Below, one piece after another: positions 748-23,040 of a stretch of DNA of 64,000 nt. Numbering within the stretch: the first letter of the stretch is position 1; the number at the start of each line of letters is the position of its first letter. The notes beneath the pieces are model-generated. The model was given only the letters and a program-made list of their open reading frames with translations. It had not been told where the DNA came from and made no database searches. Origin of the DNA: Escherichia coli (GTDB lineage: Bacteria > Pseudomonadota > Gammaproteobacteria > Enterobacterales > Enterobacteriaceae); the NCBI RefSeq assembly GCF_036507355.1, contig NZ_AP027877.1, one strand, 5' to 3'. The translations under genes were made by a program, and so were the position numbers.

Positions 748-758
748 GGGGTAACACC

Positions 759-1379: not shown

Positions 1380-2146
1380 TCAGGCGGTGTGGTTGCTATC
1401 ATCTTGCATGAGATGGTTGGCTCGAAAGACCATCATCCCTTTTTGTCGAATAGCGTCAATCCACAAATCTGCCATCCACGAGTTGATGCCATAATGCTGG
1501 ATACAACATTCACGTATCAGCCGGTGTTCGTTCGCAATGGTAGTTGGCATCAAGGCGCTGTCATCCGTATTTAAACACACCGCCAGCGGCCCGCTGCGCA
1601 GGCCGTATTGGTTAAATTTTCCGCCGGTCGCCAACCATTCTGGATTAGGTGGATTCCAGCGAAAAAGCGGGTGTTCGTGATATTTCTCAAACCGACCAAT
1701 ATAAATATTTGAGGTTGGGCAGGCTTCAAACACTAAACCAAGACGGCTGTATTTTTCGGTTAGGTAATCCTGAATGGCTTCATACAGCTTAAGCTCCCCC
1801 TGAGAAATGAAATCCTCATCTTCAGACAGGGGCGACAAATAGCTATCAGTATCGTTAGGACAACAGTTAATGCAAATAATCCGGTTGGCGGGCTCCTTTT
1901 CATGCAAACCGCTGTTGAGATAGCGTTGCCATAAACGATAAGCAGTGACATTTTTCACTGACGGCGTATGATCTTCTTGCAACGCATCCCAGTCAGGGGC
2001 CCATTCCAGCCTATTCGCGCTGACGGACTCCAAGTTAGCATAATCAGGCCAATTGCGGCGCAGCAGCCACGCCTGATAAAGTAAGTTAGGCGTATAGATA
2101 TCTTTAAATATCCGCTGCGACCAGTGATGAATTTTATCGCGCAATT
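1380..2146 (-). pseudogene. C-terminal fragment of an adenosine-deaminase-family (amidohydrolase) protein, truncated by IS1
   Basis: 254-aa ORF carries the C-terminal ADA-type motifs (ACPTSN and CLNTDD) but lacks the N-terminal metal-binding half. Its reading frame runs straight into the IS1 left end at 2147. Confidence 0.5.
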
Positions 2147-2201
2147 GGTGATGCTGCCAACTTACTGATTTAGTGTATGATGGTGTTTTTGAGGTGCTCC
2201 A

Positions 2202-2477
2202 GTGGCTTCTGTTTCTATCAGCTGTCCCTCCTGTTCAGCTACTGACGGGGTGGTGCGTAACGGCAAAAGCACCGCCGGACATCAGCGCTATCTCTGCTCT
2301 CACTGCCGTAAAACATGGCAACTGCAGTTCACTTACACCGCTTCTCAACCCGGTACGCACCAGAAAATCATTGATATGGCCATGAATGGCGTTGGATGCC
2401 GGGCAACTGCCCGCATTATGGGCGTTGGCCTCAACACGGTTTTACGTCACTTAAAAAACTCAGGCCGCAGTCGGTAA
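2202..2477 (+). CDS. insA: IS1 InsA (transposition repressor)
   Basis: 91-aa [46 protein letters not shown]... recognised as IS1 InsA with zinc-finger CxxC pairs. Confidence 0.9.
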
Positions 2478-2899
2478 CCTCGCGCATACAACCGGGCAGT
2501 GATGTGATTGTCTGCGCTGAAATGGACGAACAGTGGGGCTACGTCGGTGCTAAATCACGTCAGCGCTGGCTGTTTTACGCGTATGACAGGATACGGAGGA
2601 CAGTTGTGGCGCACGTTTTCGGTGAACGCACTCTGGCCACACTGGAGCGTCTTCTGAGCCTGCTGTCGGCCTTTGAGGTCGTGGTATGGATGACGGATGG
2701 CTGGCCGCTGTATGAATCACGCCTGAAGGGAAAGCTGCACGTTATCAGCAAGCGTTACACTCAGCGCATTGAGCGACATAATCTGAATCTGAGACAACAT
2801 CTGGCAAGGCTGGGACGGAAGTCACTGTCGTTCTCAAAATCGGTGGAGCTGCATGACAAGGTCATCGGGCATTATCTGAACATAAAACACTATCAGTAA
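2396..2899 (+). CDS. insB: IS1 InsB (transposase catalytic part, normally made as an InsAB' frameshift fusion)
   Basis: 167-aa ORF inside IS1 overlapping insA in another frame; sequence recognised as IS1 InsB. Confidence 0.85.
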
Positions 2900-3069
2900 G
2901 TTGGAGTCACTACCGTAGAAGTTAAATCAGGAAAATCGAAAAAAATGAAACGTTCGGCATTGTCGTCGAGTTCCGCTTAATGACGTATCCATCCCGTTTT
3001 CCCCTTCACGTTTTCATGTTTGATAGAGGGCAAAATTGAGCCCTCTCAATCAAGATAATGAGTGAAAAC

Positions 3070-6000
3070 CTATACCGTCCAGCTGTTCGACACCACTTCA
3101 GCCTGCTTCAGTATCAGTTCAACTGCATAAGGTGTTTTATCTGGCGGATACTTGTACTTACGCAGCGTCTGACGCACCAGAATACGTAACCGCGCACGCA
3201 CGCTTTCTCGCACCTGCCAGTCTACGGTTGTGGACTGGCGCAATTTTAACGTGACTTCGATAGCCAGTTTCTTAAGGACGTCATCACCCAGCTCCCGTAC
3301 CGCACTTTCGTTTTCTGCCAGCGCATCGTAGAACGCGATTTCGTCCGGGTTTAGCCCCAGCGCTTCATCACGCGCCATCGCTTCCTGAAACTCTTTTGCC
3401 ATCTGGATCAGTTCTTCAATCACCTGCGCAGTTTCAATGGCGCGGTTATTGTATTTGAGAAGCACGGCTTTCAGGCGATCTGAGTATTTCTTCTCCTGCA
3501 CCACGTTGTTTTTGGTGCGGGCATGAATGCCGTCGTTCAGCAGTTTCTCCAGCAACTCGACTGCCAGATTACGCTGCGGCAATTCGCGCACTTCTTCCAG
3601 AAACTCGTCTGACAACAATCCAATATTCGGCTTATCCAGACCCGCCAGCGCAAACACATCATCCACGCCCGTCGCAATAATGGCGTTATCGAGGATTTTA
3701 CCGAGTAGCGTATTTTTCTCTGACTGACTGAATTTTTTGTCGGTTGTCGTCAGCTTGATAATCGCCACTTTCACCGCCGACAAAAACGCGATCTCTTTTT
3801 GCAAGGGTTTAGCTTCATCTAACGTACTGCACAGCGACCAGGCTTTGTTCATCGCCAGCACGACATCGAAAAAGCGCTTCTTACCGTCATCAAGGCCCAG
3901 CACATAATCTGCGGCTTTGAGTAAAAACCGTTGGGGCACCTCTGCAAAACCGGTGTAATCAAACCCGGCGGCGGTTGGTGTTTTGGCAAACATTCCATGA
4001 ATCACATCCAGCTTTTCAAGCAGGATGGAGAACGCTTCATGAGCATCGACTGTCGTCTGTCCTTTACCTTTTGAATCGGTATAAGTTTTCAGCGCCTGTT
4101 TCAGTTCATTGGCGATACCGATGTAATCCACCACTAAACCGCCCGGTTTATCTTTGAAGACGCGGTTGACGCGCGCAATGGCCTGCATCAGATTATGCCC
4201 GCGCATCGGTTTGTCGATATACATGGTATGACAACATGGCGCATCAAACCCGGTAAGCCACATATCGCGCACAATCACCAGTTTCAACGGGTCGTTGAGA
4301 TCTTTAAAGCGCGCTTCAAGGCGTTTTTTGGTTTGCTTATTGTAGATGTGCGGCTGAAGGAATTTATTATCGGAGGCTGAGCCGGTCATGATGATTTTGA
4401 TTTCACCTTTCTCGACGTCATCACTGTGCCATTCCGGGCGTAGAGCCACCAGCGCATCATACAGCTTCACGCAGATCTCACGGCTCATGGCAACAATCAT
4501 TGCTTTGCCATTCATTGTGGCGTTACGTGCCTCAAAATGCTGAACCAGATCGGCGGCCACCTCATTGATACGAGGTTCAGAACCAACCAGTTTTTCCAGA
4601 CGGCTCCAGTCACTTTTGGTTTTCTCTTTCTGATCGGTCTCTTCATCTTCGACCAGCTCATCCACCTGATTAGACAGCGTTTCCAGCTCTTCGTGGTTGA
4701 GGTCGAGTTTTGCCAGGCGCGATTCATAGTAGATAGGCACGGTTGCGCCATCTTCCACCGCATCCTGTATATCGTAGATAGAGACGTAATCACCAAACAC
4801 CGCGCGGGTGTCTTTATCTTCGGAAGAAACCGGTGTTCCGGTAAAGCCCATAAACGACGCATTGGGTAACGCATCGCGCATATGTTTGGCGTAACCGTAT
4901 TTATAAGCGCCAGTCTCCCGGTTCAGCGTGGCGCTAAGACCATACTGGCTGCGGTGCGCTTCATCGGAAATGACGACGATATTGCTGCGCAGGTTTAGCG
5001 CCGGGTGAGTCTGTTCGCCATCAAGCGGGGCAAATTTTTGTACGGTGGTAAAAATAATCCCGCCTGATTCACGGACATTGAGCATCTCGCGGAGCTGGTC
5101 GCGATCGTTTGCCTGTAACGGTTCCTGCTTAAGCAAATCCTGTGCCTGGCAGAAGGTGGCATACAGTTGGCCGTCGAGATCGTTACGGTCGGTCACCACC
5201 ACGATGGTCGGGTTGTTCATTTCCGCTTGTTGTAGCAGTTTTCCGGCGTAACAACACATCGAGATACTCTTACCGGAACCCTGCGTATGCCACACCACAC
5301 CGGCTTTTTTACTGCCTGGCGTGATGTTGCTGCGCAGCGGCAAGTGTTTACCGGTAGAGGCCACAATCGTCGCCGTCACCGCTTCACGTACTGCGTGGAA
5401 TTGGTGGTAAGCGGCAATCTTTTTAATCAGTCGTTTGCCGTCGCTTTCAAACAGGATGAAGTAACGAATGTAGTCGAGCAGCAGTTCGCGGTTAAAGAAC
5501 CCTTTTACTACCGTTTCAAGCTGCCATTCAAACAGCGGTTTGTCGTCTTCATTAGACAGCGTTTTCCACGGCAAGAAGCGCTCTTCGTTCGCGGTGAGAG
5601 AGCCAATACGGGCGTTGTAGCCATCGCTGACCACCAGCGCTTCGTTGCAGATGAACAGATCGCTGAGTTCGTTTTTATAGGTCTGCAACTGATTAAATGC
5701 CGCCCAGATATCGGCATTAGCATCAATCGGGCTTTTCAGCTCAATCACTACTACTGGCAATCCGTTGATATAGCAGATAACGTCCGGGCGACGTACCTGC
5801 TTCGTTCCCTGGATGGCCACCTGATTCACCACCGTAAAGTGGTTATTATTTGGGTGGTTAAAATCCATCAGTAGCGCTTTGTCGTGGATAACTTTGTCAT
5901 CCTGCTTGTACTGCACCGGCACGCCGTCGAGCAGCAGGTGATGGAAGGCTTTGTTACTGACGACCAGATCCGGGCTTTGCGCATGGGCGATACGCAGTAT

Positions 6001-6204
6001 CACCTCATCCAGCACGGCAACCGGGAGATGTGGGTTAATCTTTTGCAACTGCTCCAGTAGCACCGGGCGCAAAAACACATCGTGGAACGACGCACGCAGC
6101 GGATTGTTGCCATCTGGCGCAATATCCGGCCCGTGCAATACTTCCCAGCCCAGTTCAGCAAACCATTGCAGGCTTTGCTGTTCTAAATCGTCTTCGCTCA
6201 GCAT
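3070..6204 (-). CDS. hsdR: Type I restriction enzyme R subunit HsdR (1044 aa)
   Basis: Walker A ([11 protein letters not shown]), DEAH box ([11 protein letters not shown]) and overall helicase/translocase architecture. Last gene of the hsdM-hsdS-X-hsdR operon; its start overlaps the stop of the upstream gene. Confidence 0.85.
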
Positions 6205-7391
6205 CAGGTTTCCTCTGTCTCGGTTTCTTCCATTTCTTCGGGCACGTTTGAAATCTCTTTGAGCGCCATATTCAGTGGGGCAATAAAGGGATCTAACGCT
6301 TTTTCAAATGCCGTCAGGTTTACCAGTAGCCAGTCGATCATTTCAGGCCAGTTGGCTTCATCAAGGCTGATGGCCGGGCTGGCATAGGAAATTCGACACG
6401 ATTTTTTACCCGGCAGAGGTTCCCACTTAAGCGCATGGCCAAACGCGTTTTCAATTGCCTCTTTGCGTTCATGTAGCCAGTTAAAAGCAAAGGTATTGCT
6501 CTCTGCGGAAGCTTTGGCAATCCACAGCTCAACCCGAATCTCTTTTTTACTGAAAATCAGGTTATACGACACCGCGCTAATACCAGAGCCCGCACTGATC
6601 CAGTGATCGGTAGAGGGGCTGATATTGTTATATAAGTGGCAGGAGCTGGCTTTGAGGCGCTCCAGCATCTTTGTCCAGAAAGCTTTACGCATTAATTGGA
6701 CTGGCTTTACTCCGCCGCTGACGGATTGTTCTTCCGCCTCTTTTTGCGCCATACCGATCATGTAAGATTCTGCTTCCGGTGTGGGGATAACCTGACGGAT
6801 ATCAACGAATACATCGTCGTTGAACTTATAGGGTTTAACCTTAAAGCACTGTACCCGCAGACCAAATTGCATGAGCCACAGGGCAGTGTTGGTCACCTCT
6901 TTGCGAAAGTTGGCTGCGACCATGATGATTCGCTGTGTACGGCTCTGGTTGATTAAGGCTTCATCCAGCGTTTCATATTCGAGGAATTCAGCAAGCACCT
7001 CTGCCGCCGGGCGATTTTCCTCTGGGTCGTATTTATCCAGATAAAGCTGGAAGATCTGCAGAATTTGCTCTTTACGCAGGTTGGCGCAATACCCGGCATA
7101 TTTGAGCGCTTGCCAGACGACGTCGCGACCTGAATCATCGAGCTTATTCTCGATGATCACCAGATTGCCTTTTTTATCGATAGCCAGCAGGTCAAGGCGC
7201 TCTTTGGTGTCGTCAAAACCGGCGAACTCTTTCTGTATAATCAGTAGTTCATCGTCATTATCGCGAGTTAACGCTTGGGGATTCTGCGCCAGCCATTCCT
7301 GCAGATTGCCACGTTCGGTAAAACCAAGACTACTGAAAGAGACTTCCTGTAGGGAGTGTAAGCTGTTAGTCGGCGTATCAACTTTATACAT
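6204..7391 (-). CDS. PD-(D/E)xK (NucS/DUF91-like) nuclease-domain protein embedded between hsdS and hsdR (about 395 aa)
   Basis: Motif [21 protein letters not shown] resembles a restriction-endonuclease-fold D...ExK core. No Walker A, so not PrrC. Start and stop overlap hsdS and hsdR (translational coupling). Confidence 0.5.
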
Positions 7392-8769
7392 TTTCCACCT
7401 CACTGACTGCCTGTTCTGCTTCCTGCAGGGTAATTTCACCCGAGAGAAGTTTGGGGAGAAGGGTGTCGCGGAGTTGGGTTAGTGATTCAGTTTGTACACT
7501 GAGCGATTTAATCTCATTAAATAAATGTGTACATTTGGCATGAAATAACTCCAATACTTTAGCATCAGGCTGAGCGATTTTAATTCCTGAGAAAGTAGAC
7601 GTATTGACATTTAAAGTTGCACTACCTGCGCTACCTAAAATGTGAAGATGATCTTTCAATCCCAACATACAAAAATAAAGATAATAGAGTAAGGAACTCT
7701 TATGAGGTGTAACAGAATTTATTTGCTGATTGGTATGAGATGGTTCATTGGTGATAGAAACAACACCAATAGTAGCTATACAACTAACACAGATAGAATT
7801 TGCGGGTACAAGTTTTTTTAGTTGCGACTTTGAACCGGCTTCGCTTAAATATTCATTAGTTTTAAGCACAAAAAGTTGCCCATGCATATCTGGTATCTTT
7901 ATGAATGGAACATCACTACCGTAATACTCTGGTTCTTTTTTTGACGGAGTTTTGCCACAAGTAACCTTCCCCATCTCACTAATTGACGCCACCCCCCATC
8001 CTTTAGGAATCGCCCCTAACTCACTGTCCTGCATCGCTGCCGGAAACAGTTCTGCCGTGGCTTTTAACTCGGCATATTGCTCAGGGTGTTCACGCTCAAA
8101 AACCGCCAGCGCATCCGCATCTTTCCCAGAAATGGCGGTCATGGCGGCAAGTGTTGCGTCTGCCTGCGAACCGCCCGCATCCAGTACTGCCATTTTGGCT
8201 TTTACGGGGTCAAAATCAACAAACCAACTTTTGAACAGGGCTTGTGCCATTTGTTCGAGGGTTTGGTTGATGCGATTATTACTATCAATTTTTTTACTTA
8301 ACGTAAAAATTAGCTTTGTACATCTTTTTTGATATTTTAAAGAAGGAATCTTTATTTTGTAGCTCAGCATGGCCCCTTTATCACCTCGAGGCATTTTTGC
8401 GCCCTTGGATGTAAGATGGCTATAATTAATAAAATCATCACTGCTTAAAATCAAATGTAAATATTCACTTGTGAGTTTTTCATGTGTAGTCCTAAATACT
8501 AGCACATCAGGAGAAACACCTCCGTAAAATGTGGCAAACCATACTTTTTTAAAGTACGTTCGAATATTAGAAAATAAAGTATCACCTATTTCAAAAGAAT
8601 TAAATTTGTTGACATCAGGGATGCCTGATGAAATAGTTACACCCTGACGGTCAGGCAACATATTTTCCGTGGAAATATAATTAGTAACATCTATAATAGA
8701 TGCATCACATTTTTTTGTGACTATCTCTACAAAGTTACCTAACTCAGTTTCGATGAACTCAAAACTCAT
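7384..8769 (-). CDS. hsdS: Type I R-M specificity subunit HsdS (about 461 aa)
   Basis: Sits between hsdM and hsdR with size and position typical of HsdS; start overlaps the hsdM stop. The track ORF start at 8826 is rejected in favour of the ATG at 8769. Confidence 0.7.
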   Translation of the reverse strand: MSFEFIETELGNFVEIVTKKCDASIIDVTNYISTENMLPDRQGVTISSGIPDVNKFNSFEIGDTLFSNIRTYFKKVWFATFYGGVSPDVLVFRTTHEKLTSEYLHLILSSDDFINYSHLTSKGAKMPRGDKGAMLSYKIKIPSLKYQKRCTKLIFTLSKKIDSNNRINQTLEQMAQALFKSWFVDFDPVKAKMAVLDAGGSQADATLAAMTAISGKDADALAVFEREHPEQYAELKATAELFPAAMQDSELGAIPKGWGVASISEMGKVTCGKTPSKKEPEYYGSDVPFIKIPDMHGQLFVLKTNEYLSEAGSKSQLKKLVPANSICVSCIATIGVVSITNEPSHTNQQINSVTPHKSSLLYYLYFCMLGLKDHLHILGSAGSATLNVNTSTFSGIKIAQPDAKVLELFHAKCTHLFNEIKSLSVQTESLTQLRDTLLPKLLSGEITLQEAEQAVSEVENV

Positions 8770-10468
8770 AACCCAGCCCCCCCAGATTCGCCTTAATCTG
8801 CGCTTCCAACTTCGCGCTCTCTTCAAGCTGATCTTTAAGCTGCGCCGTCAGGCGCGCCATCTTCTCGGCAAACGGTTCATCATCTTCAGCTTGCTCGGCG
8901 GCACCAACGTAGCGCCCAGGGGTCAGCACAAAGTCGTTTTTCTGGATATCCTCCAGCGTTGCTGAGAAGCAGAATCCGGCTTCGTCTTCGTAGTCTTTAT
9001 CCGTCTGCCAGGCGTGGAAGGTATCGGCAATTCTGGCGATATCTTCGCGGGTAAAGTCGCGCAACACGCGATCTTTCATATAACCAATCTGGCGCGCGTC
9101 GATAAACAGCACTTCACCTTTACGGTGCGCTTTGCCGTTGCCACCGGATTTATCTTTGGTCAGGAACCAGATACAGGCTGGGATTTGGGTGTTGGTAAAC
9201 AGTTGCCCTGGCAGCGCCACCATACATTCCACCAGATCCGCTTCAATCAGGTTGCGGCGGATCTCGCCTTCATTGTTAGTGTTGGAACTCATCGAACCGT
9301 TCGCCAGCAGCAGCGCCATCGAACCTTTTGGCGCGAGGTGGTGGATCATGTGCTGCATCCACGCAAAGTTGGCGTTGCCCTGCGGCGGTGTGCCGTATTT
9401 CCAGCGCACGTCGTTTTCCAGCTTCGCGTTCCACCACTCCTTCATGTTGAACGGCGGGTTTGCCATCACGAAGTCAGCGCGCAGATCCGGGTGCTGGTCG
9501 TCTAGCAGGGTGTCGGCGTTTTTGGCACCAAAGTTAAAGTCGATACCGCGGATCGCCATGTTCATCGCCGCCAGCTTCCAGGTGGTCGGATTCGACTCCT
9601 GGCCGTAAACGGAAATATTGCGCTTCTGCTCAGCGGCGTTGTAATTCTTTTCGCCCGCGTGCTCTTCAATGAAACGGTCGCTGGAAACGAAGAACCCGCC
9701 GGAACCCATTGCCGGGTCATACACCCGCCCGTTGTACGGTTGCAGCATTTCGACAATCAGGGTCACGATGCTTTTTGGCGTGTAGTACTGACCTCCCTGT
9801 TTACCTTCCGCCAGCGCGAATTGCCCCAGGAAATATTCGTAAACGTGGCCGAGAATATCTTTGCTCTTTAAGCTGAGTTTCTCGCCGTTATATTCCGGGT
9901 TGCTGAAGTTTGCGTCAGAGAAGGTATTAATCAGCCCGGTCAGCACCTCGTTACTCAGTTGATACTGGCTGATGCGATTCAGAATACCTTTCAGTTTCGG
10001 GTTGGTTTTTTCGATTTCATCCAGCGCGTTATCCACCAGCCAGGAGACAGAGCGCAGCGTCACATCCTTGCCGGTGGTTTCATCCACCCACAGCACGGTG
10101 CCGGTCGGCAACATGGCTTTGTTTTTCAGCGTGTCCCAGCGCGCGGCTTTTGGCACCCAGAAGATGTTCTTTTCGGTGTAGTAATCTTCAACTTCCAGCT
10201 CTTCCTGGATAGCCTGAGCGTATTCTTCGTCGGAACCGTAATCATCGCGCGACATGGCGTAGATGTTGTCGGGATTACCGACATCGCGGAACAGGGTCGT
10301 CAGCTCCTGCTGACGCGCCTCGAAGGCATCAGAAACATACTTCAGGAAGATTAGCCCCAGCACCACATGCTTGTAGTTGGCGGCATCCATATTGGCGCGC
10401 AGTTTGTCGGCGGCCTTCCAGAATTTGTTATCCAGCTCGTTCAGAAATAGCTGTTCAGCGTTGTTCAT
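8759..10468 (-). CDS. hsdM: Type I R-M DNA methyltransferase subunit HsdM (about 569 aa)
   Basis: N6-adenine methyltransferase catalytic motif NPPF (FVMANPPFNMKEW) and an AdoMet-binding region (VYDPAMGSGGFF); first gene of the operon. Confidence 0.85.
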   Translation of the reverse strand: MNNAEQLFLNELDNKFWKAADKLRANMDAANYKHVVLGLIFLKYVSDAFEARQQELTTLFRDVGNPDNIYAMSRDDYGSDEEYAQAIQEELEVEDYYTEKNIFWVPKAARWDTLKNKAMLPTGTVLWVDETTGKDVTLRSVSWLVDNALDEIEKTNPKLKGILNRISQYQLSNEVLTGLINTFSDANFSNPEYNGEKLSLKSKDILGHVYEYFLGQFALAEGKQGGQYYTPKSIVTLIVEMLQPYNGRVYDPAMGSGGFFVSSDRFIEEHAGEKNYNAAEQKRNISVYGQESNPTTWKLAAMNMAIRGIDFNFGAKNADTLLDDQHPDLRADFVMANPPFNMKEWWNAKLENDVRWKYGTPPQGNANFAWMQHMIHHLAPKGSMALLLANGSMSSNTNNEGEIRRNLIEADLVECMVALPGQLFTNTQIPACIWFLTKDKSGGNGKAHRKGEVLFIDARQIGYMKDRVLRDFTREDIARIADTFHAWQTDKDYEDEAGFCFSATLEDIQKNDFVLTPGRYVGAAEQAEDDEPFAEKMARLTAQLKDQLEESAKLEAQIKANLGGLGYEF

Positions 10469-10800
10469 GTAAATCCTCGGGGTAGATCGCAGCGAAAGAG
10501 CAACCATGCCTTATCGCAAATTCAGTTTTGGAATGCAGTTCGCAAAATGATACCCGGTACACTTACGATTACAAATGCGCGGTATAAAGAAGTTTGCATT
10601 TGATCGGTGAATAATAGGAAACTCAGTCACTGTTTCGTCTGCAAAATCAGCCATTTCGCCTTCATACGTAGTTCTTCGGTTGAATAGTAAGGTCTATCAT
10701 GCTGCATCGAACGGTGATTTTGATGGATGTTGGAAGTGAGTAGCTGTACGTAATTTTTGATTAAAAGTAATCAAAATGTTGCCAATGGTTATGCTATCGT

Positions 10801-11724
10801 GTGTTTTTTGAATATATAACAGGTAAAACTATGTCCTGGCTTAATTCTGTCTTATTGGCGCTTACCTCGGTGCAACCTTATATGGTACCGGCAACCGTTA
10901 TCGGCCTCGTCAGTTTTGCATTCCTCTGTTTTATTTTCTTTTATTTTTTTAGAGCAGTTAAAATTATTAACGGCCTGAAAAAATATACTCAGTCAATTAA
11001 TGGCATCGAAAATAATGAGCCTGGTAATCAGCTTCAGCATCTGCAAAGTTTGTTTGTACAGCCTGAGTTAAAGCACGCCTGGAATGAATTCGAAGAATCG
11101 TTGCACTCACAATATGAACTGGAGGACGGGGAAGAGAAAATCGTCCGTATTAGGGCTACTGCACCGAGCGCCAGTTTCTTCTCGGAGCAACAACTGGTCG
11201 ATATTCCGCTGAACACCGAATTTTTCAAACACCTGCCCGGTATTCTGACCGGTGTGGGGATTATCGGTACCTTCTACGGTCTGATGATTGGTCTCAACCA
11301 CTTCGACCCCAGCACACCAGAGCAGGTCTCCAGCAGCGTCAATAATCTGCTTCGCGATGTGCTGTACGCCTTCCTCGGTTCAGCATTTGCGATTACGTTC
11401 TCTATCCTTATCACCTGGCTGGAGAAATTCTGTCTGGCGAAATGCTACAAATATCTGGAAAAATTCACCGCAGCTCTCGACGCCCTCTATGACAGCGGTG
11501 TTGGCGAGGAGTACCTTGCCTCACTGGTAAAATCCAGTAATGAAAGCGCGACCCAGGCACGCCATCTGAAAGAGAGCCTGGTTACCGATTTACGCGATAT
11601 GCTGCTGCATCTGGCCAACAGCCAGAAAGTGGAAAACGAGCGGCTAGCGACCACCCTCAGCACCACCTATCGCGAAACAGGACAACAGTTTGCCGAGCAA
11701 GTCAGCGGTGCGATTGAAAACTGA
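10801..11724 (+). CDS. MotA/TolQ/ExbB-family proton-channel (stator-like) membrane protein (about 297-307 aa)
   Basis: Three predicted TM helices with TolQ/ExbB-like spacing. TM2 carries the family signature (LPGILTGVGIIGTFYG, compare TolQ GLFGTVWG). The stop codon TGA is formed by the first three bases of IS629, so the 3' end is disrupted or altered by the IS. Confidence 0.55.
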   Translation: MFFEYITGKTMSWLNSVLLALTSVQPYMVPATVIGLVSFAFLCFIFFYFFRAVKIINGLKKYTQSINGIENNEPGNQLQHLQSLFVQPELKHAWNEFEESLHSQYELEDGEEKIVRIRATAPSASFFSEQQLVDIPLNTEFFKHLPGILTGVGIIGTFYGLMIGLNHFDPSTPEQVSSSVNNLLRDVLYAFLGSAFAITFSILITWLEKFCLAKCYKYLEKFTAALDALYDSGVGEEYLASLVKSSNESATQARHLKESLVTDLRDMLLHLANSQKVENERLATTLSTTYRETGQQFAEQVSGAIEN

Positions 11725-11775
11725 ACCGCCCCGGGAATCCTGGAGACTAAACTTCCTGAGAAAGAGGTAAACAGG

Positions 11776-12102
11776 ATGACTAAAAATACTCGTTTTTCCC
11801 CCGAAGTCCGTCAACGGGCAGTCCGTATGGTTCTGGAAAGTCAGAGCGAATATGACTCACAATGGGCGACAATTTGTTCCATTGCTCCAAAGATTGGCTG
11901 TACGCCGGAGACTCTGCGTGTCTGGGTTCGCCAGCATGAGCGGGATACCGGGGGCGGTGATGGAGGGCTCACCACCGCTGAACGTCAGCGTCTGAAAGAG
12001 CTGGAACGTGAAAATCGTGAACTGCGCCGCAGTAACGATATCCTTCGCCAGGCTTCCGCTTATTTTGCGAAGGCGGAGTTCGACCGCCTCTGGAAAAAAT
12101 GA
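11776..12102 (+). CDS. IS629 OrfA (helix-turn-helix transposase N-terminal protein)
   Basis: [23 protein letters not shown]...; IS3-family OrfA with a leucine zipper near the C-terminus. Confidence 0.85.
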
Positions 12103-12989
12103 TGCCACTGCTGGATAAGCTGCGTGAGCAGTACGGGGTCGGACCGCTATGCAGCGAACTGCATATTGCCCCGTCAACGTATTACCACTGTCAGCAACAG
12201 CGACATCATCCGGATAAACGCAGTGCCCGTGCGCAGCGCGATGACTGGCTGAAGAAAGAGATACAGCGCGTATACGATGAAAATCACAAGGTATACGGTG
12301 TGCGTAAAGTCTGGCGTCAGTTGTTACGGGAAGGTATCAGAGTGGCCAGATGCACTGTGGCACGTCTCATGGCGGTTATGGGACTTGCCGGTGTTCTCCG
12401 GGGTAAAAAGGTCCGTACGACCATCAGCCGGAAAGCCGTTGCCGCAGGCGACCGCGTAAACCGTCAGTTCGTGGCAGAACGACCTGACCAGCTGTGGGTG
12501 GCTGATTTTACTTACGCCAGCACATGGCGGGGCTTCGTCTATGTGGCGTTCATCATTGATGTGTTTGCCGGATACATCGTGGGGTGGCGGGTCTCATCGT
12601 CCATGGAAACGACATTCGTGCTGGATGCACTGGAGCAGGCGTTATGGGCCCGTCGACCGTCCGGCACGGTCCATCACAGTGATAAAGGTTCTCAGTATGT
12701 ATCGCTGGCCTACACACAGCGGCTTAAGGAAGCCGGATTACTGGCATCAACAGGAAGTACAGGCGACTCGTATGACAACGCGATGGCGGAGAGCATCAAT
12801 GGTCTTTACAAAGCGGAGGTAATACACCGTAAGAGCTGGAAAAACCGTGCAGAAGTGGAACTGGCCACACTCACGTGGGTGGACTGGTATAACAATCGAC
12901 GATTGCTGGAAAGGCTGGGCCATACTCCTCCGGCAGAAGCAGAAAAAGCTTATTATGCTTCCATCGGAAACGATGATCTGGCAGCCTGA
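12099..12989 (+). CDS. IS629 OrfB (DDE transposase; expressed by -1 frameshift with OrfA)
   Basis: IS3-family integrase/DDE core (WVADFTY... HSDKGSQY... DNAMAES); overlaps orfA in the -1 frame. Confidence 0.85.
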
Positions 12990-13153
12990 GTTCACAGATA
13001 AAACACTCTCCAGGAAACCCGGGGCGGTTCACACTATTATTTCTCCGGTTAGCCTACAACAACGTTTTTATCAGAAGCTCAACCAGCAGATAATAGAAAT
13101 GAAAAACCCATTGCAGTGAAATTATTTTTGACAACATACAGCAGGAGTAAAAA

Positions 13154-13999
13154 ATGTTACGTGGTTCAGAAAGAAAAGAAGCATTAGCCAGTCTCAAAAG
13201 TGCAACTAACCGTTATGAAGTACAGGCTAAAGACACCCAGGATGAGATCACTGCCCTCTTTCTGTTACGCCAGAAATGCAGTAAGGACCTGATTGCCCGT
13301 GGTGAAAATTTTGTTAATCGACTGGCGAATACACCGAAAGAGTTTGATAAATCCTGGAGCGAATTGAAAGCGGAAATCGCTGAATTTGATAACGTGGTGG
13401 AAAAACTGGAAGAAGAATACCGCGCATCACATATTGGTAAAGGAACGGCTGCTGCGGGGGTTGCCGTTGGGGCGGGGGTCGCCGCATTTGCCCCTACGGC
13501 TGCGCTGGCGGTCGCAACAACTTTTGGTACAGCATCCACGGGTACCGCTATTGCTACGTTAAGCGGAGCTGCCGCAACAAATGCAGCCCTGGCATGGCTC
13601 GGCGGCGGCGCACTGGCTGCGGGTGGCGGTGGCATGTCAGCAGGAAGCGCACTACTGGCTCTGGCGGGTCCAATAGGCTGGGGGATTGGTGCTGTAGGCA
13701 TCGCTGGCGGAACCTTACTAGCCCGTCGCAAAAACGGTAAAATCATTGATGAAGCACAACAGGAAGAGCGCCAGGTTCGCGCAAAAACCAGCGAACTTCG
13801 CGTGATGGAACGTGGTGCGCAAGAACTCAAGATGCTCACATCCGAGCACTATCATGGTACTGAAAGCATTATTGATGTGCTGGAAAAGGCTGCGCCTCAA
13901 GACTATTGCCAGTTTAATACCCATCAGAAAGATCAATTAGGGGCATTGATTAACCATATCAATGCATTATCAAAACTGATCAACAAGAAAATCCAGTAA
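13154..13999 (+). CDS. Hypothetical protein with central Gly/Ala-rich glycine-zipper membrane segment (281 aa)
   Basis: Helical N- and C-terminal regions flank a Gly/Ala-rich hydrophobic stretch of about 100 aa (GTAAAGVAVGAGVAAF ... GWGIGAVGIAGG). Its stop overlaps the next start (TAATG). Confidence 0.5.
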   Translation: MLRGSERKEALASLKSATNRYEVQAKDTQDEITALFLLRQKCSKDLIARGENFVNRLANTPKEFDKSWSELKAEIAEFDNVVEKLEEEYRASHIGKGTAAAGVAVGAGVAAFAPTAALAVATTFGTASTGTAIATLSGAAATNAALAWLGGGALAAGGGGMSAGSALLALAGPIGWGIGAVGIAGGTLLARRKNGKIIDEAQQEERQVRAKTSELRVMERGAQELKMLTSEHYHGTESIIDVLEKAAPQDYCQFNTHQKDQLGALINHINALSKLINKKIQ

Positions 14000-15444
14000 T
14001 GAGCATTAACCATAATACAGTTGGCGACCAGCTTATCGGCAGCGCGGTTAACGCCATTAATCAGACCCGCATTGATAATGAACTGTTAAAACTATCGCAG
14101 CAGGATCGTGCATTTGAGTTGGCTGGCGAACAAATGCAAAAGGTGCGTGATTTCATCGCGTCACCGGGTAACATCCTGGGCTCAATGAGCACCAAACACG
14201 GTGAAATTGCTGAGCAGGTAGAAGTTGGCGTGCGCAATGCTCGCCAGGCAATAGAAGAAAGGGTTCAGGATGCCTCTGATCTTAGCGCCACGTTTGACGG
14301 AGTGGGTCGAACCGCTCCGGCGGATTATATGATAGATGGCGTTGACGTGCAGTCAAAGTTTATCAACGGAGTTAATAATAACCTGAACCATGTCCTTCAG
14401 CACATGGAAACCTATCCCAATTTCACCCGGGGAGAATCCTTTTACCATATCCCCAAAGACTCCTGGCAAACGATTCAGGATGTTATTGATGGGAAGCCGG
14501 TGGAGGGCTTGAGCGAAAAAACAATACAGGCTATCAGGGATAAAGTTGCAGAAATTGAAAGTACAACGGGAAGATCCTTTAATGATGTCGTGCGTCCTGG
14601 AGTTTCTGATTACAAAGATGTTCAGTGGGGAAAAATTGACGAAACTCTTGATAAACATGATCAGGAATTAGCGGAACAGAACGAGGCAAAAAAAGCAGAA
14701 ATTATTGACGATCACCAACCCTCCCTAAGTGAAGGCATGCGTGCAACCGCAATGGGAGCCGCTTTCGGTGGAACCTTTGCTCTTGTAACAGGTATATATA
14801 GCAAATACCGTGACGGTAAAAATATATTTCGTGGAGATTTCAACAGACAGGACTGGCAGGATGTCGGCTTAGATACATTGAAAGGTGCCGCTATTGGCGG
14901 TGTATCCGCCGGAGCAATTTATACCCTGACCAATTATGCCTCTCTGGGAGCACCGTTCGCCAGCGCGCTGGTCACTGCCGCTAAAGGTGTAAGCAATCTT
15001 GCTCTCTCCTATCAGCGCGGTGAGATTAATGCTGATGAATTTACCGATCTTGGCCTTATCATCTGCGCGGAATCGGCCATCGTTGGCGCAATGTCTGTCG
15101 CAGGTCAGGCAATCATCCCTGTGCCTGTTTTGGGGGCATTGGTTGGTTCTATCTCAGGGAAGTTTATGGTTACCGTAGCTAAAAATCTGGACAGTAAAGC
15201 ACGCCAATTGCTGGCGAAAAAAATGGAGCAATTTACATGTCGCTTAAGTGAGATTGAGCAGAAAGCACTCAACCGAATTTTGAACGAGTTCGCGGCGCTG
15301 GGTGAGCTTACCGCAGCTGCATTTAGCGTGGAAAACAATCGCCGGTTGCTGGAAGCAAGCATCACGCTTGCCCAAGCCCACGGTGTTGAAGAGGCGAAGA
15401 TAATCAAAAATGCGGATGATCTTGACACATTTATGATGGCGTAG
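13999..15444 (+). CDS. Hypothetical protein with C-terminal glycine-zipper membrane segments (481 aa)
   Basis: Soluble N-terminal region of about 240 aa, then several Gly/Ala-rich hydrophobic segments (GAAFGGTFALVTG, GAAIGGVSAGAIYT, AIVGAMSVAGQAII). Translationally coupled to the upstream gene. Confidence 0.5.
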   Translation: MSINHNTVGDQLIGSAVNAINQTRIDNELLKLSQQDRAFELAGEQMQKVRDFIASPGNILGSMSTKHGEIAEQVEVGVRNARQAIEERVQDASDLSATFDGVGRTAPADYMIDGVDVQSKFINGVNNNLNHVLQHMETYPNFTRGESFYHIPKDSWQTIQDVIDGKPVEGLSEKTIQAIRDKVAEIESTTGRSFNDVVRPGVSDYKDVQWGKIDETLDKHDQELAEQNEAKKAEIIDDHQPSLSEGMRATAMGAAFGGTFALVTGIYSKYRDGKNIFRGDFNRQDWQDVGLDTLKGAAIGGVSAGAIYTLTNYASLGAPFASALVTAAKGVSNLALSYQRGEINADEFTDLGLIICAESAIVGAMSVAGQAIIPVPVLGALVGSISGKFMVTVAKNLDSKARQLLAKKMEQFTCRLSEIEQKALNRILNEFAALGELTAAAFSVENNRRLLEASITLAQAHGVEEAKIIKNADDLDTFMMA

Positions 15445-15480
15445 CACTCGAATAAAAATTACAGCAAGGATAAAACCACA

Positions 15481-18003
15481 ATGCTACAGATAATTGGTGC
15501 GTTAATTTTACTGGTAATCGGTTTTGTTATTATAAAAGCGTTGTTTAAGGCATCTCTCAATATTCTAGGTGTGATATTAGGATTGGGTGCATTGATTGTT
15601 GCAGGCCCACCTTTATTGGCGGGCTATATTGTAGAGCGCGTAACCTATGCGCTTCACTCACGTTGGCTGCTGGGTGTACCTCTTGCCATAGCAGGAATGG
15701 TGATTAGCTTTATGTGGGGACTTGATGGTAAACATATTGCCTACGAAGCCTATTCATTTGATTCAATGAAGTTTATTTTAACCGCTGCATTTGCCAGTGG
15801 CCTGCTTGCAGTACCTGTACAAACCAAGGCTATTCTACAAAACGGGCTTATACCAGCCGATATCAATGCCAAACTTAAAGAGTATTATTGCTGTTTTTAT
15901 ACGTCTTACTTTTTGATGGCCTGCTCTGCGGCTACACCGTTTATAGCCTGGCAATATAATATCTCATCTTCACTGATGTGGTGGACAGGATTGCTATACT
16001 GGATAGCAGCCTTACTGACACAGTTCTATGCGGCAAACCAAATTCAGGAACTCAAGAAGTTAACTAATGCCATCAATACAGGGTTAAATGAGCAAAAAGC
16101 GATCAATAACCAACTTTGGCTGACGGAACTAAAAGAAGGAAGTAACCTCTCAGCAGAATTCGTAGAGACTATCTATCTTAAGTTGGTCTCACAGCATATT
16201 TTTCAGGGCGATACTCGAGAGCAGGATCTGGCTGGTGAAAACTGGCTTTTAAATGATGCCTGGTATGAAAGAAAGATGGCTGAATTTAATGAGCAGTTAA
16301 ACAGTAAAATTGTACACTCATCAGATGAGCTAAGAAGCCTTTTTGGTAATAGGCTGAATTTACCCTCTGCTGCGAATGATGATCTCCTGAACCGTTATCT
16401 TGATGGTGGGAACTATTATTCTTTTTCGGATGGTCGAAAATTTGTCTCGTTTCACTATGTCGACGAGCTTTGTACCTGCACTTCATGCGGTTTGAGCGAG
16501 ATTAAAAACGCAAAACACCAGGACGGTTGTGGGAGCCAGGAATGGTATTGCTCTGATATTTGCCGGGAAACGGAAAAACTCTGCATTGAAATTCACAAGC
16601 GACCACAGGCTGAATTTATTTCCAGTGCAGCAACAAACGGTCTGATTCTCATGACGCTCCCGGAGGCCTGGAATACTAACGAAAAAATGTTTGCAGTGGG
16701 AGGACAAGGACATGGTTTTGCAGCCGAACGGGGAAATCATCTTACTGACAAAATCCAACTAAAAGATGCACATATTCTCGGTGATGATAATGCGAAAAAT
16801 GGTGCAGACAGGCTGGTTAACGGTTCAGAGATTCAGACCAAATACTGTGCAACCGCTGCACGTAGCGTCGGTGCTGGTTTTGACGGACAAAACGGTAATT
16901 ATCGCTATTATGACAGTAACGGAACCCCAATGCAGTTAGAGGTTCCGAAAGACCAGTATTCGAAAGCGCTTGAAACGATGGAGAACAAAATTCGCGATGG
17001 CAAAGTCCCCGGCGTTACCGATCCTGCAGAAGCCACAAAACTTGTACGTCAGGGACACCTGACTTATAGCCAGGCACAAAACATTACTAAGTTTGGCACG
17101 TTCGAATCTATCACTTACGACATTGCGGAAGGATCTATCATCAGCCTCGCAGCTGGAGGTATCAGCTTCGGTCTGACAGCTTCTATTTTCTACCTCAATA
17201 CCGGCGATCGTAAGGCTGCGTTGCAAACGGCAGCAATACAGGCAGGTAAAACATTTACCCGCACACTGACAGTTTATGTGACGGTACAGCAATTACACCG
17301 TATCAGTGCCGTTCAGGGGTTACTTAAAAATATTGATTTTGCCGCTGCCAGCCCGACAGTTCGTAATGCGCTTCAACAGGGAGTCGGAGCTAACAATCTC
17401 AACTCCCTTAACAAGATGATGCGTGGCACACTGGTTACCTCTTTCGCACTGGTCGCCGTGACCACTGGTCCGGATATGATCAAAATGGTGCGAGGTCGTA
17501 TTTCTGGGGCACAGTTTATAAAAAATCTGGCAGTTACTTCATCTGGTGTGGCTGGGGGGGCAATTGGTTCTATTGCTGGCGGAATGATGCTTAGTCCATT
17601 AGGTCCTTTCGGTGCTTTAGCAGGACGCGCAGCTGGTGGCTTGTTAGGCGGTATGATTGCCACAGCGATTTCCAAAAAAATAGCGGGTGCACTGGTTGAA
17701 GACGACCGAGTAAAAGTGCTGGCTCTCATCCAGGAACAGGTTACATGGCTTGCAACAAGTTTCATGCTTACAGCACACGAACTTGAAAACCTGAACGCGA
17801 ATCTGGCAACAGTAATTGACCAAAAAACCCTGGAGGTTATCTTCGCCGCAAAAGAGCAAGACCGAGCAACGGCCAATATGCTGATTAAACCACTTGTAGT
17901 AAGTGTGGTTAAGCAACGACCGGTCCTGAGCTATGAACAATCGCAAATCTGCGAAATGGTCGATCAGCTTGATACATCGGTTTCATTATCTGCTGTTGCA
18001 TAA
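15481..18003 (+). CDS. Hypothetical large membrane protein (840 aa): N-terminal multi-TM domain, Cys-rich zinc-ribbon-like segment, C-terminal glycine-zipper region
   Basis: About six N-terminal hydrophobic helices; Cys cluster CTCTSCGLSEIKNAKHQDGCGSQEWYCSDICRETEKLC; C-terminal Gly-rich segment SSGVAGGAIGSIAGGMMLSPLGPFGALAGRAAGGLLGG. Confidence 0.5.
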   Translation: MLQIIGALILLVIGFVIIKALFKASLNILGVILGLGALIVAGPPLLAGYIVERVTYALHSRWLLGVPLAIAGMVISFMWGLDGKHIAYEAYSFDSMKFILTAAFASGLLAVPVQTKAILQNGLIPADINAKLKEYYCCFYTSYFLMACSAATPFIAWQYNISSSLMWWTGLLYWIAALLTQFYAANQIQELKKLTNAINTGLNEQKAINNQLWLTELKEGSNLSAEFVETIYLKLVSQHIFQGDTREQDLAGENWLLNDAWYERKMAEFNEQLNSKIVHSSDELRSLFGNRLNLPSAANDDLLNRYLDGGNYYSFSDGRKFVSFHYVDELCTCTSCGLSEIKNAKHQDGCGSQEWYCSDICRETEKLCIEIHKRPQAEFISSAATNGLILMTLPEAWNTNEKMFAVGGQGHGFAAERGNHLTDKIQLKDAHILGDDNAKNGADRLVNGSEIQTKYCATAARSVGAGFDGQNGNYRYYDSNGTPMQLEVPKDQYSKALETMENKIRDGKVPGVTDPAEATKLVRQGHLTYSQAQNITKFGTFESITYDIAEGSIISLAAGGISFGLTASIFYLNTGDRKAALQTAAIQAGKTFTRTLTVYVTVQQLHRISAVQGLLKNIDFAAASPTVRNALQQGVGANNLNSLNKMMRGTLVTSFALVAVTTGPDMIKMVRGRISGAQFIKNLAVTSSGVAGGAIGSIAGGMMLSPLGPFGALAGRAAGGLLGGMIATAISKKIAGALVEDDRVKVLALIQEQVTWLATSFMLTAHELENLNANLATVIDQKTLEVIFAAKEQDRATANMLIKPLVVSVVKQRPVLSYEQSQICEMVDQLDTSVSLSAVA

Positions 18004-18166
18004 TGAAAGGTATAAATTCATTACCATCGTGATATGGTGCTTCAGACGAAGCAAACTTAAATACCATTAACCCCATGATACTATTGTAAAATCCAAAAAA
18101 AATAATAGTAATCATCATAATGAACTGGTTCGAACAGACTGCGGAAGAGTATGGAGAATTAACAAA

Positions 18167-18186
18167 TAAGGGGGCATTTGCCCCCT
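18167..18186. terminator. Candidate bidirectional rho-independent terminator between the 840-aa gene and arsC
   Basis: Perfect 8-bp GC-rich stem AAGGGGGC/GCCCCCTT with a 4-nt loop, flanked by T-rich sequence on both strands. Confidence 0.5.
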
Positions 18187-18192
18187 TCATCA

Positions 18193-18618
18193 TTATTTCA
18201 GTCGTTTACCTGCATCATCAACGACTTTCTCGCCGTCTTCCTTAGCAAATGCGCCTTTTTGCGCATCCGGAAGAATATCCAGTACCACTTCGGAAGGACG
18301 GCACAGACGCGTTCCCAATGGTGTCGCCACAATCGGGCGATTAATCAGGATCGGATACTGAAGCATAAAATCGACTAACTGATCGTCAGTAAACTTATCT
18401 TCCGCAAGCCCCAGTTCTTCATAAGGTTCAACATTTTTACGCAATAGTGCCCGTACCGTTATCCCCATATCTGCGATGAGTTTGAGCACCTCATCGCGTG
18501 AAGGTGGATTTTCAAGGTAAAGAATAACGTTCGGTTCAGTACCGCTGTTGCGGATCATCTCCAGCGTATTACGCGACGTGCCGCAGGCTGGGTTGTGATA
18601 AATAGTGATGTTGCTCAT
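18193..18618 (-). CDS. arsC: Arsenate reductase ArsC (141 aa)
   Basis: MSNITIYHNPACGTSRNTLEMIR... with the catalytic Cys in the HNPACGTSR motif; recognised as enterobacterial ArsC. Confidence 0.85.
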   Translation of the reverse strand: MSNITIYHNPACGTSRNTLEMIRNSGTEPNVILYLENPPSRDEVLKLIADMGITVRALLRKNVEPYEELGLAEDKFTDDQLVDFMLQYPILINRPIVATPLGTRLCRPSEVVLDILPDAQKGAFAKEDGEKVVDDAGKRLK

Positions 18619-18630
18619 ATCAATATCTCA

Positions 18631-18840
18631 TTACAAAGTGAAAGAGAGACGTAGCGCCAGCGCGGCCAGCGTTACAAACAGCACAGGCAGAGTCATGATG
18701 ATCCCGGTGCGGAAATAGTATCCCCAGGTGATGGTCATGCTCTTCTGTGAAAAGACATGCAGCCAGAGTAGCGTTGCCAGGCTACCAATAGGTGTAATTT
18801 TCGGCCCCAGATCGCAGCCAATCACGTTGGCATAAATCAT
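18631..18840 (-). pseudogene. arsB: arsB 3' fragment (C-terminal about 69 codons of the arsenite efflux pump)
   Basis: Encodes only the hydrophobic C-terminal end of ArsB immediately upstream of arsC. No arsB 5' region or arsR is present, so the ars operon is truncated here. Confidence 0.7.
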
Positions 18841-19072
18841 CGCCTCTTTGATAACGCATCATACTGCCAGCGGAATAACTCTCTTCGTCAATACGGCTCT
18901 CGCTGTACGCTTACCCATCTAGAGAGGTTTCAGGTGATTATCGATGTCAGAAGACTGAATGATTCAGTCGTTTACTTTGAGATAGATCAGAGGTTTTTCA
19001 CTACCTGTGTTCATCACATGGCTACGAATAGTAGAATCCAAGCATAAATTAACGCTTAGAAAAGTTGAGCTC

Positions 19073-22882: not shown

Positions 22883-23040
22883 CATTTATGGTTTTTTACC
22901 GTTGTTGATTACTCAGCAACACTTTTCGACATGCCGTAGCGCTTATCGCCTGTTCTTGACTAAGATGAGAAGCAGGCGTTAAAGTTTGGTTAAAGGAGAA
23001 CCTCTAACCATTCCTTCTGGAAGAAATAATCTTTGGAGTA

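Follow-up and report, generated by a model that had tools for sequence, protein, structure and literature searches.

The locus analyzed here raises the question of how an insertion sequence comes to lie between two sets of genes with unmatched nucleotides at its two ends, and of whether those genes belong together. In a 64-kb stretch of Escherichia coli DNA (the window), an IS629-type element separates a TolQ-like reading frame from a downstream gene cluster and is flanked by AAC on one side and CAC on the other. A preliminary description had proposed either that the element mediated a rearrangement between two IS copies or that its target duplication has mutated, and had doubted that the TolQ-like gene is truly linked to the cluster. 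Comparison with related genomes makes it very probable that IS629 here marks a deletion joint rather than a simple insertion.

The IS629 element and its flanks

The element, of the IS3 family and apparently intact, occupies positions 11722–13031 on the forward strand (1,310 bp), both ends agreeing exactly with the preliminary description. The sequence begins with TGAACCGCCCCGGG at 11722 and closes with CCCGGGGCGGTTCA at 13031, and its termini (TGAACC...GGTTCA) are imperfect inverted repeats of the 5'-TG...CA-3' type, with the left repeat (IRL, 11722–11747) matching the reverse complement of the right repeat (IRR, 13006–13031) at 23 of 26 positions, both read on the forward strand. Two overlapping reading frames on this strand are orfA (11776–12102, 108 amino acids), with a Pfam match to HTH_Tnp_1, and orfB (12099–12989), with the rve/DDE integrase core and Pfam matches to rve, HTH_21, and rve_3. 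The ALIL pseudoknot, which stimulates the programmed −1 frameshift of IS3-family transposases, was identified on the same strand at 12057–12173 (Rfam RF01497; score 120.2 bits, gathering threshold 50) and is annotated at the same position in genome ET826; an OrfAB fusion is predicted to arise by this frameshifting, which is also noted in the RefSeq annotation of an identical element. The size, the inverted repeats, and the two overlapping, frameshift-joined reading frames are all those of IS629. The DNA matches IS629-type copies of CE10 and AR_0013 at 100% identity and thousands of further E. coli copies at 99.9%, the records in question reading just "IS3 family transposase." We take the element to be IS629 from its length and end sequences and from agreement with a target duplication of 3–4 bp. 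The length of that duplication is published (PMC3271280).

A single SNP separates this element from the copy in ET826 and ET729, with C rather than T at 12517 (IS position 796). T is found at this position in 45 of the 46 copies that are exactly 1,310 bp long, and C occurs rarely, on what is otherwise the commonest haplotype of IS629. The SNP was consequently dropped as a sign that the IS might be a hybrid; it fits a private mutation and is uninformative on the route of the deletion.

A sequence check upheld the earlier reading of the flanks as AAC (11719–11721) and CAC (13032–13034), which do not form the perfect 3-bp direct duplication expected of a simple IS629 insertion, and no target duplication of 3, 4, or 5 bp fits the window copy. 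This is meaningful because seven of eight unrelated control copies of IS629 carry a perfect 3-bp duplication. In a sample of 54 distinct copies, 27 had a 3-bp duplication, four had one of 4–5 bp, and 23 (43%) had none, and the published count for sites in O157 is 21 of 47 with a duplication, i.e. 55% without (PMC3271280). IS629 copies that lack a duplication are thus common, not rare. Its absence is no bar to membership of IS629 and shows a copy outside its primary insertion context. Among the target duplications of IS629, AAC is the commonest (5 of 27, P about 6e-5); of five further AAC sites of the element, one reads AAAAC. Moreover, an independent sample has TTCGGAAAATAGAAC to the left of the IS and, on the other side, either AAC (a duplication) or CAG, so that one flank occurs with two partners.

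The genes on either side of the element

The upstream reading frame (10831–11721, forward strand) consists of codons 1–297 of the 729 codons of zorA1, a gene of type I Zorya (PADLOC ZorA1, PDLC00603; E=5e-162, profile positions 1–295 of 727). The preliminary description had placed the IS at the 3' end of a TolQ-like gene. The family label holds loosely, with ZorA belonging to the MotA/ExbB/TolQ family, but the position does not, the gene being cut midway, after codon 297. The same description's claim that the IS supplies the stop codon of this reading frame is confirmed, the IS opening with that codon, TGA, at 11722–11724. The DNA of the stub is 100% identical to zorA1 of ET826, E24377A, and others, its 297 amino acids are the first 297 of ET826 ZorA1 with no difference, and window positions 10500–11721 are 100% identical to the region of the zorA1 5' part in 47 complete genomes (ET826 and 46 others).

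A complete type I Zorya comprises zorA, zorB, zorC, and zorD, of which the window holds the first 297 codons of zorA only; neither zorB, zorC, zorD, nor any complete zor gene was found within the 64 kb. Compared with the type I Zorya (zorA1B1CD) of E. coli, the window therefore retains, at full identity, 41% of zorA and nothing of the other three genes, and so has a Zorya remnant rather than a system. Loss of any Zorya gene, or truncation of the ZorA tail (residues 223–729), abolishes defence (PMC11946911). The Zorya encoded in the window should be non-functional unless another copy sits elsewhere in the genome. A zorA profile match alone could falsely suggest a functional type I Zorya in the window, and for annotation the TolQ-like reading frame is a dead zorA 5' stub that does not form one operon with the downstream genes.

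To the right of the element, also on the forward strand, lies an 88-nt 3' remnant (28 codons and the stop) of an HTH-WYL-WCX regulator gene at 13032–13119, the other 791 nt of which are missing. It is followed by the three-gene candidate defence cluster that adjoins the IS: PDC-M09A (13154–13999, 281 amino acids; PADLOC PDLC04407, E=2e-120), PDC-M09B (13999–15444, 481 amino acids; PDLC04409, E=3e-214), and a gene for an 840-amino acid protein with a weak likeness to PDC-M09B (15481–18003; PDLC04408, E=6e-5), all on the forward strand. The A and B genes are adjacent and match over the full lengths of their profiles, as the PDC-M09 candidate demands, and the 840-amino acid gene is always adjacent to the PDC-M09 pair in IS-free loci. 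A literature search found no publications on the PDC-M09 candidate, and its defence role is that of a PADLOC candidate.

WYL-type regulators of the BrxR/CapW type stand upstream of defence systems. In Z226-5, PSJ-29, and EC2641, an intact 292-amino acid regulator with the Pfam domains WYL, WCX, and HTH_DeoR stands directly upstream of the cluster on the same strand, and this HTH, WYL, and WCX protein ahead of PDC-M09 in IS-free strains resembles the BrxR/CapW-type arrangement. The window differs in having the last 88 nt alone, and the link to the PDC-M09 candidate is positional. The downstream cluster is thus the PADLOC candidate PDC-M09, whose native partner was a WYL regulator destroyed by the IS, and in the window this regulator is lost. 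Promoter prediction for the DNA from the IS to PDC-M09A yielded a single site, which overlaps the start codon. PDC-M09 probably now relies on read-through or on outward transcription from the IS.

The doubt about linkage was justified, in that zorA is native to zorB, zorC, and zorD, and PDC-M09 to the WYL-regulator module. Linkage of the zorA stub to the downstream genes is only secondary, the two coming from different modules of the island.

Comparison with sibling and IS-free genomes

The genome of ET826 has the order hsdR-DUF4268-hsdS-hsdM, zorA1-zorB1-zorC-zorD, 201 bp, IS629, the WYL 3' stub, and PDC-M09. Window positions 1–11721 align to 1931–13650 of the ET826 locus (L003) with one mismatch and one gap, and positions 11717–27329 align to 20821–36433 with two mismatches. 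The sole structural difference in the aligned span is the absence from the window of L003 positions 13651–20825 (7,175 bp), which cover codons 298–729 of zorA and all of zorB, zorC, and zorD; this segment is absent from the entire 64-kb window. ET729 shares the IS and its right flank with ET826 and lacks 17,621 bp. The window, ET826, and ET729 have one and the same right junction, in which the IS is followed by CACTATTATT, whereas their left junctions fall at L003 positions 20825 (ET826), 13650 (window), and 3204 (ET729), collinear and in one orientation. The amounts removed from one IS end in the three siblings are accordingly 0 (ET826), 7.2 (window), and 17.6 kb (ET729). The pattern is that of an adjacent deletion, with the IS kept, one junction constant, and the other reaching further on the same side, and as judged from these alignments the three form a nested, one-sided series of apparent deletions.

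The complete-genome comparison set comprised 5,426 E. coli genomes, six of which hold the right flank. In IS-free genomes, the left flank reads GATTGAAAAC followed directly by AGCCTGAAA, with zorA running on through the point at which the window's copy ends, and ahead of the right flank stands the WYL-regulator gene, with CCAAATCT followed by CACTATT, the unoccupied site seen in Z226-5 and PSJ-29. The sequence downstream of zorD continues elsewhere in IS-free loci (EA7 and 46 others). EA7 is outside the six genomes with the right flank and lacks PDC-M09; conversely, no Zorya was found beside WYL/PDC-M09 in PSJ-29, Z226-5, and EC2641 in the ∼9–46 kb upstream examined per genome. No IS-free locus that joins GCGATTGAAAAC directly to CACTATTATTTCTCC was found among the 5,426 complete genomes, and scanning metagenomes for the right junction gave no match.

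These comparisons bear directly on the proposal of a simple IS629 insertion whose 3-bp duplication later mutated. AAC and CAC do differ by one base only. This proposal is nevertheless rejected: among these genomes the two flanks are never contiguous in IS-free loci, and each has its own context, the left running on as zorA and the right following the WYL gene of another island module. Moreover, the near-identical ET826 keeps 7,175 bp between both points that are gone in the window. The probability left to a mutated duplication is practically negligible.

An assembly artefact, in which IS copies in zorA and at the WYL site were collapsed and the DNA between them dropped, has in its favor that 1.3-kb repeats are a classic cause of collapse. 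It is nonetheless extremely improbable, with the 64-kb window contiguous across both this IS and an IS1, suggesting a long-read or finished assembly, and with ET729, a complete genome assembled independently, showing an analogous, larger deletion.

The part of the preliminary description that invoked a rearrangement stands, as a 7,175-bp deletion joint relative to ET826, and the part that invoked two copies finds no hybrid IS signature. Reciprocal recombination of distant IS629 copies, by inversion or translocation, is the classical cause of unmatched IS flanks, and that description had raised a rearrangement between two copies; the zorA 3' part and zorBCD would then persist beside an IS629 with complementary flanks. 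Within the 64 kb of source DNA inspected, however, neither a second IS629 end nor any DNA of the missing segment is present. Of the reciprocal sequences missing at the ET826 and ET729 junctions (EA7-type downstream DNA and the 5' part of the WYL gene), no copy exists in these complete genomes, so the sibling events were losses. The three left junctions are also collinear and in the same orientation, as deletions predict. Reciprocal exchange is accordingly a highly improbable source of the unmatched flanks.

Possible routes to the probable deletion joint

Under the favored reading of a deletion joint, the ancestor would have been arranged like ET826, with a restriction-modification (RM) system, a complete Zorya, 201 bp, IS629, the WYL stub, and PDC-M09. 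The window lineage would then have lost 7,175 bp from the left terminus of the IS leftward into zorA, leaving the IS and the right junction untouched. No duplication would be expected, because CAC is the junction with the WYL gene and AAC is whatever zorA sequence the deletion reached. ET826 itself carries an IS5 insertion of its own at the equivalent of window position 27329; it is for this reason a sibling rather than the direct parent, and the ancestor is reconstructed. The ET826 junction is likewise without a duplication (AAC to the left, CAC to the right), so that direct descent from an earlier, unobserved state is also thinkable, and the window could instead stem from such a state by a larger deletion. 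A primary insertion into the WYL gene with CAC on both sides of IS629 was not found in the comparison set, where the IS is at this site in ET826 and ET729 only.

The left flanks of the window and of ET826 both end in AAAAC, which raises a transposase-independent deletion, by slippage or end joining, between AAAAC pentamers in zorA and abutting the IS of an ET826-like parent. IEE, found alongside IS629 in many E. coli, is efficient at microhomology-mediated end joining with overlaps of 4–6 nt (PMC9943667; bioRxiv 10.1101/2023.06.07.543989). The right-hand pentamer, however, is flush with the IS terminus; a break at this terminus would not use AAAAC because the pentamer lies off the IS side. The left junctions of ET826 and ET729 are also exactly at the terminus, with a possible homology of just 0–2 bp, and generic slippage has no cause to halt at an IS end three times. 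With AAC a preferred target and AAAAC occurring at one of its five other sites, the pentamer can be preference and chance. Microhomology was consequently rejected as the main cause, on the IS-flush joint in three strains and the AAC target preference, and we consider it very unlikely.

IS629 itself appears to have made the deletion, since the joint coincides to the base with the end of the IS and falls at AAC, the favorite target of the element. Two routes would yield the same product. In the first, toward which we tentatively lean, a second IS629 in direct orientation would insert at the AAC in zorA, followed by homologous recombination between the copies. In the second, possible but held with less confidence, the left end of the IS, or a tandem or circle junction, would attack zorA in a single intramolecular step. 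The window IS shows no hybrid signature, and a two-copy intermediate was not found.

Both the element and the pattern have known parallels. As summarized in PMC9943667, citing Kusumoto 2011, many genomic deletions are due to IS629, and those adjacent to the IS span sizes of a few nt up to over 40 kb. The deletions in O157 (Ooka 2009 and Kusumoto 2011, in the accounts cited in PMC9943667 and bioRxiv 10.1101/2023.06.07.543989) share with the window the element, the start at the IS end, a size range that includes that of the window deletion, and the lost duplication; they differ in that the IS is retained in the window and not excised, and the likeness is drawn from O157 hosts. For IS150, also of the IS3 family, nested deletions from one IS end into the rbs operon arose in the long-term evolution experiment, in the description of Cooper 2001 given in PMC4301190. 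There, too, the IS stays, one flank is constant, and losses of varied length extend from one end in sibling lineages; the differences are the element, IS150 rather than IS629, and the setting, a laboratory experiment in which a fitness benefit was measured as opposed to natural isolates. A 6,927-bp IS150-associated deletion in population Ara-1 is classed as recombination between repeated IS150 elements (PMC4173774); we take this to be the rbs deletion from its coordinates, the table row being silent on rbs. The phenomenon is thus already known, as ordinary IS-driven genome erosion long established for IS629, IS150, and others.

The window is a clean natural example of the erosion of a defence island by an IS. 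A bolder reading, speculative and unlikely in our estimation, is that the left end of this IS629 is a recurrent generator of deletions and that the IS rewires, or switches, the defence island rather than merely eroding it. If true, one clone would carry polymorphic repertoires, ET826 having both RM and Zorya, the window RM alone, and ET729 neither system; removal of the WYL regulator by the same IS would leave PDC-M09 de-repressed or IS-driven; and phages, or the cost of Zorya, may select for the switching.

IS629-type element and its duplication-free flanks

The insertion sequence at 11722-13031 is a complete IS629-type element of the IS3 family, 1,310 bp long, with its left end (TGAACCGCCCCGGG...) starting at 11722 and its right end (...CCCGGGGCGGTTCA) finishing at 13031, coordinates that agree with the preliminary description. 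The termini form inverted repeats with 23 of 26 positions matching, orfA encodes HTH_Tnp_1 and orfB encodes rve (a DDE-type integrase core domain), and an ALIL frameshift pseudoknot (Rfam RF01497, 120 bits) is located at 12057-12173. No second copy of either end was found in the 64-kb window. The copies in CE10 and AR_0013 are 100% identical to the element, with thousands of other E. coli copies at 99.9%. Relative to the copies in ET826 and ET729, two relatives carrying the same IS, the sole difference is C for T at 12517 (IS position 796), so that the OrfB motif DFTY[V/A]STW has Ala (GCC) in place of Val (GTC), near the first Asp of the DDE catalytic motif. T is found at this position in 45 of 46 other 1,310-bp IS629 copies, making C a rare allele that fits a private mutation at background divergence and, as such, lends no support to a hybrid IS.

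The left flank reads ...GCGATTGAAAAC and the right flank CACTATTATTTC..., with flanking triplets AAC and CAC, respectively. As first noted, there is no perfect duplication, and none of 3, 4 or 5 bp fits around the element; the upstream ORF does take its stop codon, TGA, from the opening three bases of the IS (11722-11724). A perfect 3-bp duplication was observed in 7 of 8 unrelated control copies from complete E. coli genomes. In a larger sample of 54 distinct flank pairs, made up of these controls plus copies detected in viral and prophage contigs, 27 had a 3-bp duplication, three 4 bp, one 5 bp and 23 (43%) none. A survey of four O157 genomes, which also discusses highly diverged IS629 flanking sites, recorded duplications of 3-4 bp at just 21 of its 47 sites (PMC3271280). 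On these counts, a 3-bp duplication is a valid expectation for IS629, yet duplication-free copies are common. One left flank in the sample, TTCGGAAAATAGAAC, is paired with two right flanks, one giving an AAC duplication and the other none, which mirrors the situation in the window. IS629 also shows target bias, with AAC the commonest 3-bp duplication (5/27; P about 6e-5 versus uniform expectation) and 16 of 31 duplications ending in C.

Interrupted genes on either side

The upstream "TolQ-like" ORF (10831-11721) is the 5' part of type I Zorya zorA1. It matches positions 1-295 of 727 in the PADLOC ZorA1 profile (E=5e-162), it shares 100% DNA identity with zorA1 of 47 complete genomes, and its 297 residues are the first 297 of the 729-residue ZorA1. 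The IS, previously placed at the 3' end of this gene, is in fact mid-gene, at 41% of zorA1, where the intact sequence reads ...GATTGAAAAC|AGCCTGAAA. The window contains no complete zor gene, with zorB, zorC and zorD absent from these 64 kb, and the stub could yield only the ZorA membrane part plus about 75 tail residues. Because Zorya defence needs every gene and the full ZorA tail, residues 223-729 (PMC11946911), the system should be non-functional here unless a second copy is present elsewhere in the genome.

To the right, genes of 281, 481 and 840 aa (13154-18003) match the PADLOC candidate system PDC-M09, the first as M09A (E=2e-120) and the second as M09B (E=3e-214), with the third bearing a weak likeness to M09B. 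The right flank occurs in only six complete genomes, and the four IS-free carriers (Z226-5, Z226-6, PSJ-29 and EC2641) have a gene for a 292-aa HTH-WYL-WCX regulator directly upstream of the cluster. The right junction is inside this WYL gene (unoccupied site ...CCAAATCT|CACTATTATT), of which the last 88 nt, stop included, are left, and PDC-M09 in the window has lost its regulator. Promoter prediction in the stretch from the IS to PDC-M09A gave a single site, overlapping the start codon, and PDC-M09 may now be silent, de-repressed or IS-driven. The zorA stub and the downstream genes are not operon partners, and the earlier doubt over their linkage was well placed.

The PDC-M09 cluster has been struck repeatedly by IS elements (window 13032-18003; loci L002 11760-13718 and L136 33098-36293). 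The WYL regulator is destroyed by IS629 in the window, ET826 and ET729; the 840-aa gene is cut by IS1B in ET729, and M09A is interrupted by IS903B and IS110 in EC2641.

Relatives sharing the right junction

In ET826 (NZ_CP100901.1) the order is hsdR, a DUF4268 gene, hsdS, hsdM, zorA1, zorB1, zorC, zorD, 201 bp, IS629 and the right flank, the last two being the same as in the window. Window 1-11721 differs from ET826 by one mismatch and one gap and 11717-27329 by two mismatches, and the only structural difference over the aligned span is that the window lacks 7,175 bp, positions 13651-20825 of the ET826 locus (L003). ET729 carries this IS and right junction too; its left junction corresponds to L003 position 3204, and it lacks 17,621 bp, including the entire type I restriction-modification system and Zorya. 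With one right junction common to the three strains and three collinear left junctions, the sequences form a nested one-sided deletion series. ET826 is a sibling of the window strain and not its parent or ancestor, because it carries an IS5 of its own (ISKpn26-like; L003 36433, equivalent to window 27329), inserted in its counterpart of an 857-aa ORF (25270-27843, minus strand).

The ET826 junction likewise has no duplication (AAC|CAC), and in 47 Zorya genomes free of the IS, e.g. EA7, a different sequence follows its left flank. Neither the missing 5' part of the WYL gene (all 20 matching records listed) nor EA7-type downstream DNA (all 49 listed) is present in the complete ET826 and ET729 genomes; with no reciprocal junctions, the events in these two strains were losses. 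Nor does the 64-kb window contain the 7,175 bp or the missing parts of the island, and the main residual uncertainty is that the missing segment may lie elsewhere in the source genome. The two flanks are contiguous in none of the 5,426 complete E. coli genomes, IS-free loci included. The refuting case named in the preliminary description thus did not arise for the rearrangement, and a point-mutated target duplication is excluded. Of the two explanations in the preliminary description, rearrangement or mutated duplication, the former therefore holds in substance: the joint in the window is very probably a deletion, of the textbook IS-anchored kind already known for IS629 itself.

Several other features of the island were observed. 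The type I restriction-modification operon (3070-10507), with the DUF4268 gene between hsdR and hsdS, has hsdR, hsdS and hsdM intact in the window and is deleted in ET729. The IS1 at 2143-2918 has a frameshift A-run at 2453 of A6 versus A5 in ET826, a difference for which a homopolymer error in either assembly may be responsible. The SIR2-domain gene (19007-22882; intact, 1,291 aa, in PSJ-29) carries two nonsense mutations, one private to the window (G>A at 20271) and one shared with ET826 (C>A at 20998), and is another decaying defence-type gene of the same island. Between this gene and an integrase lie three minus-strand ORFs of 242, 504 and 857 aa (23041-27843), which have no Pfam match but conserved counterparts in ET826, Z226-5 and PSJ-29. 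The integrase (28247-29482), of the tyrosine type and bearing an Arm DNA-binding domain, marks the right end of the island; ARAGORN found no tRNA gene in the 64-kb window. In PSJ-29 the same island module sits beside paoABCD.

Proposed routes of the probable deletion

In each of the three strains the joint meets the IS terminus exactly, to the base, and AAC, the commonest duplication triplet, is at the left junctions of the window and ET826 alike. Both observations point to the chemistry of the IS end and a target chosen by the transposase. The AAAAC pentamer common to the left flanks of the window and ET826 might hint at microhomology. Generic slippage, however, offers no reason for a deletion to stop precisely at the IS terminus on three occasions, and a break there would make no use of the homology; target preference plus chance explain the pentamer. 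IS-end chemistry could have acted by two routes. In the first, a second IS629 copy, directly oriented, would insert at AAC in zorA, and the interval would then be lost when the two copies recombine homologously. In the second, zorA would be attacked intramolecularly, in a single step, by the left end of the IS or by an IS junction. Both give the same product, and the sequence is compatible with either. The first route is slightly favoured, because each step is standard and copy-out-paste-in transposition alone deletes no donor DNA.

The closest documented analogue comes from the long-term evolution experiment, where nested deletions extend from one IS150, another IS3-family member, into the rbs operon (PMC4301190). 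A 6,927-bp IS150-associated deletion in Ara-1 was classed as recombination between repeated IS150 elements (PMC4173774); we take this, from its coordinates, to be the rbs deletion, as the table row names no operon. For IS629, adjacent deletions ranging from a few nt to over 40 kb are reported, and they are enhanced by the IEE protein (PMC9943667; bioRxiv 10.1101/2023.06.07.543989). What is mildly notable here is only the set of three sibling genomes, in which a defence island is seen to be eroded step by step from one IS end.
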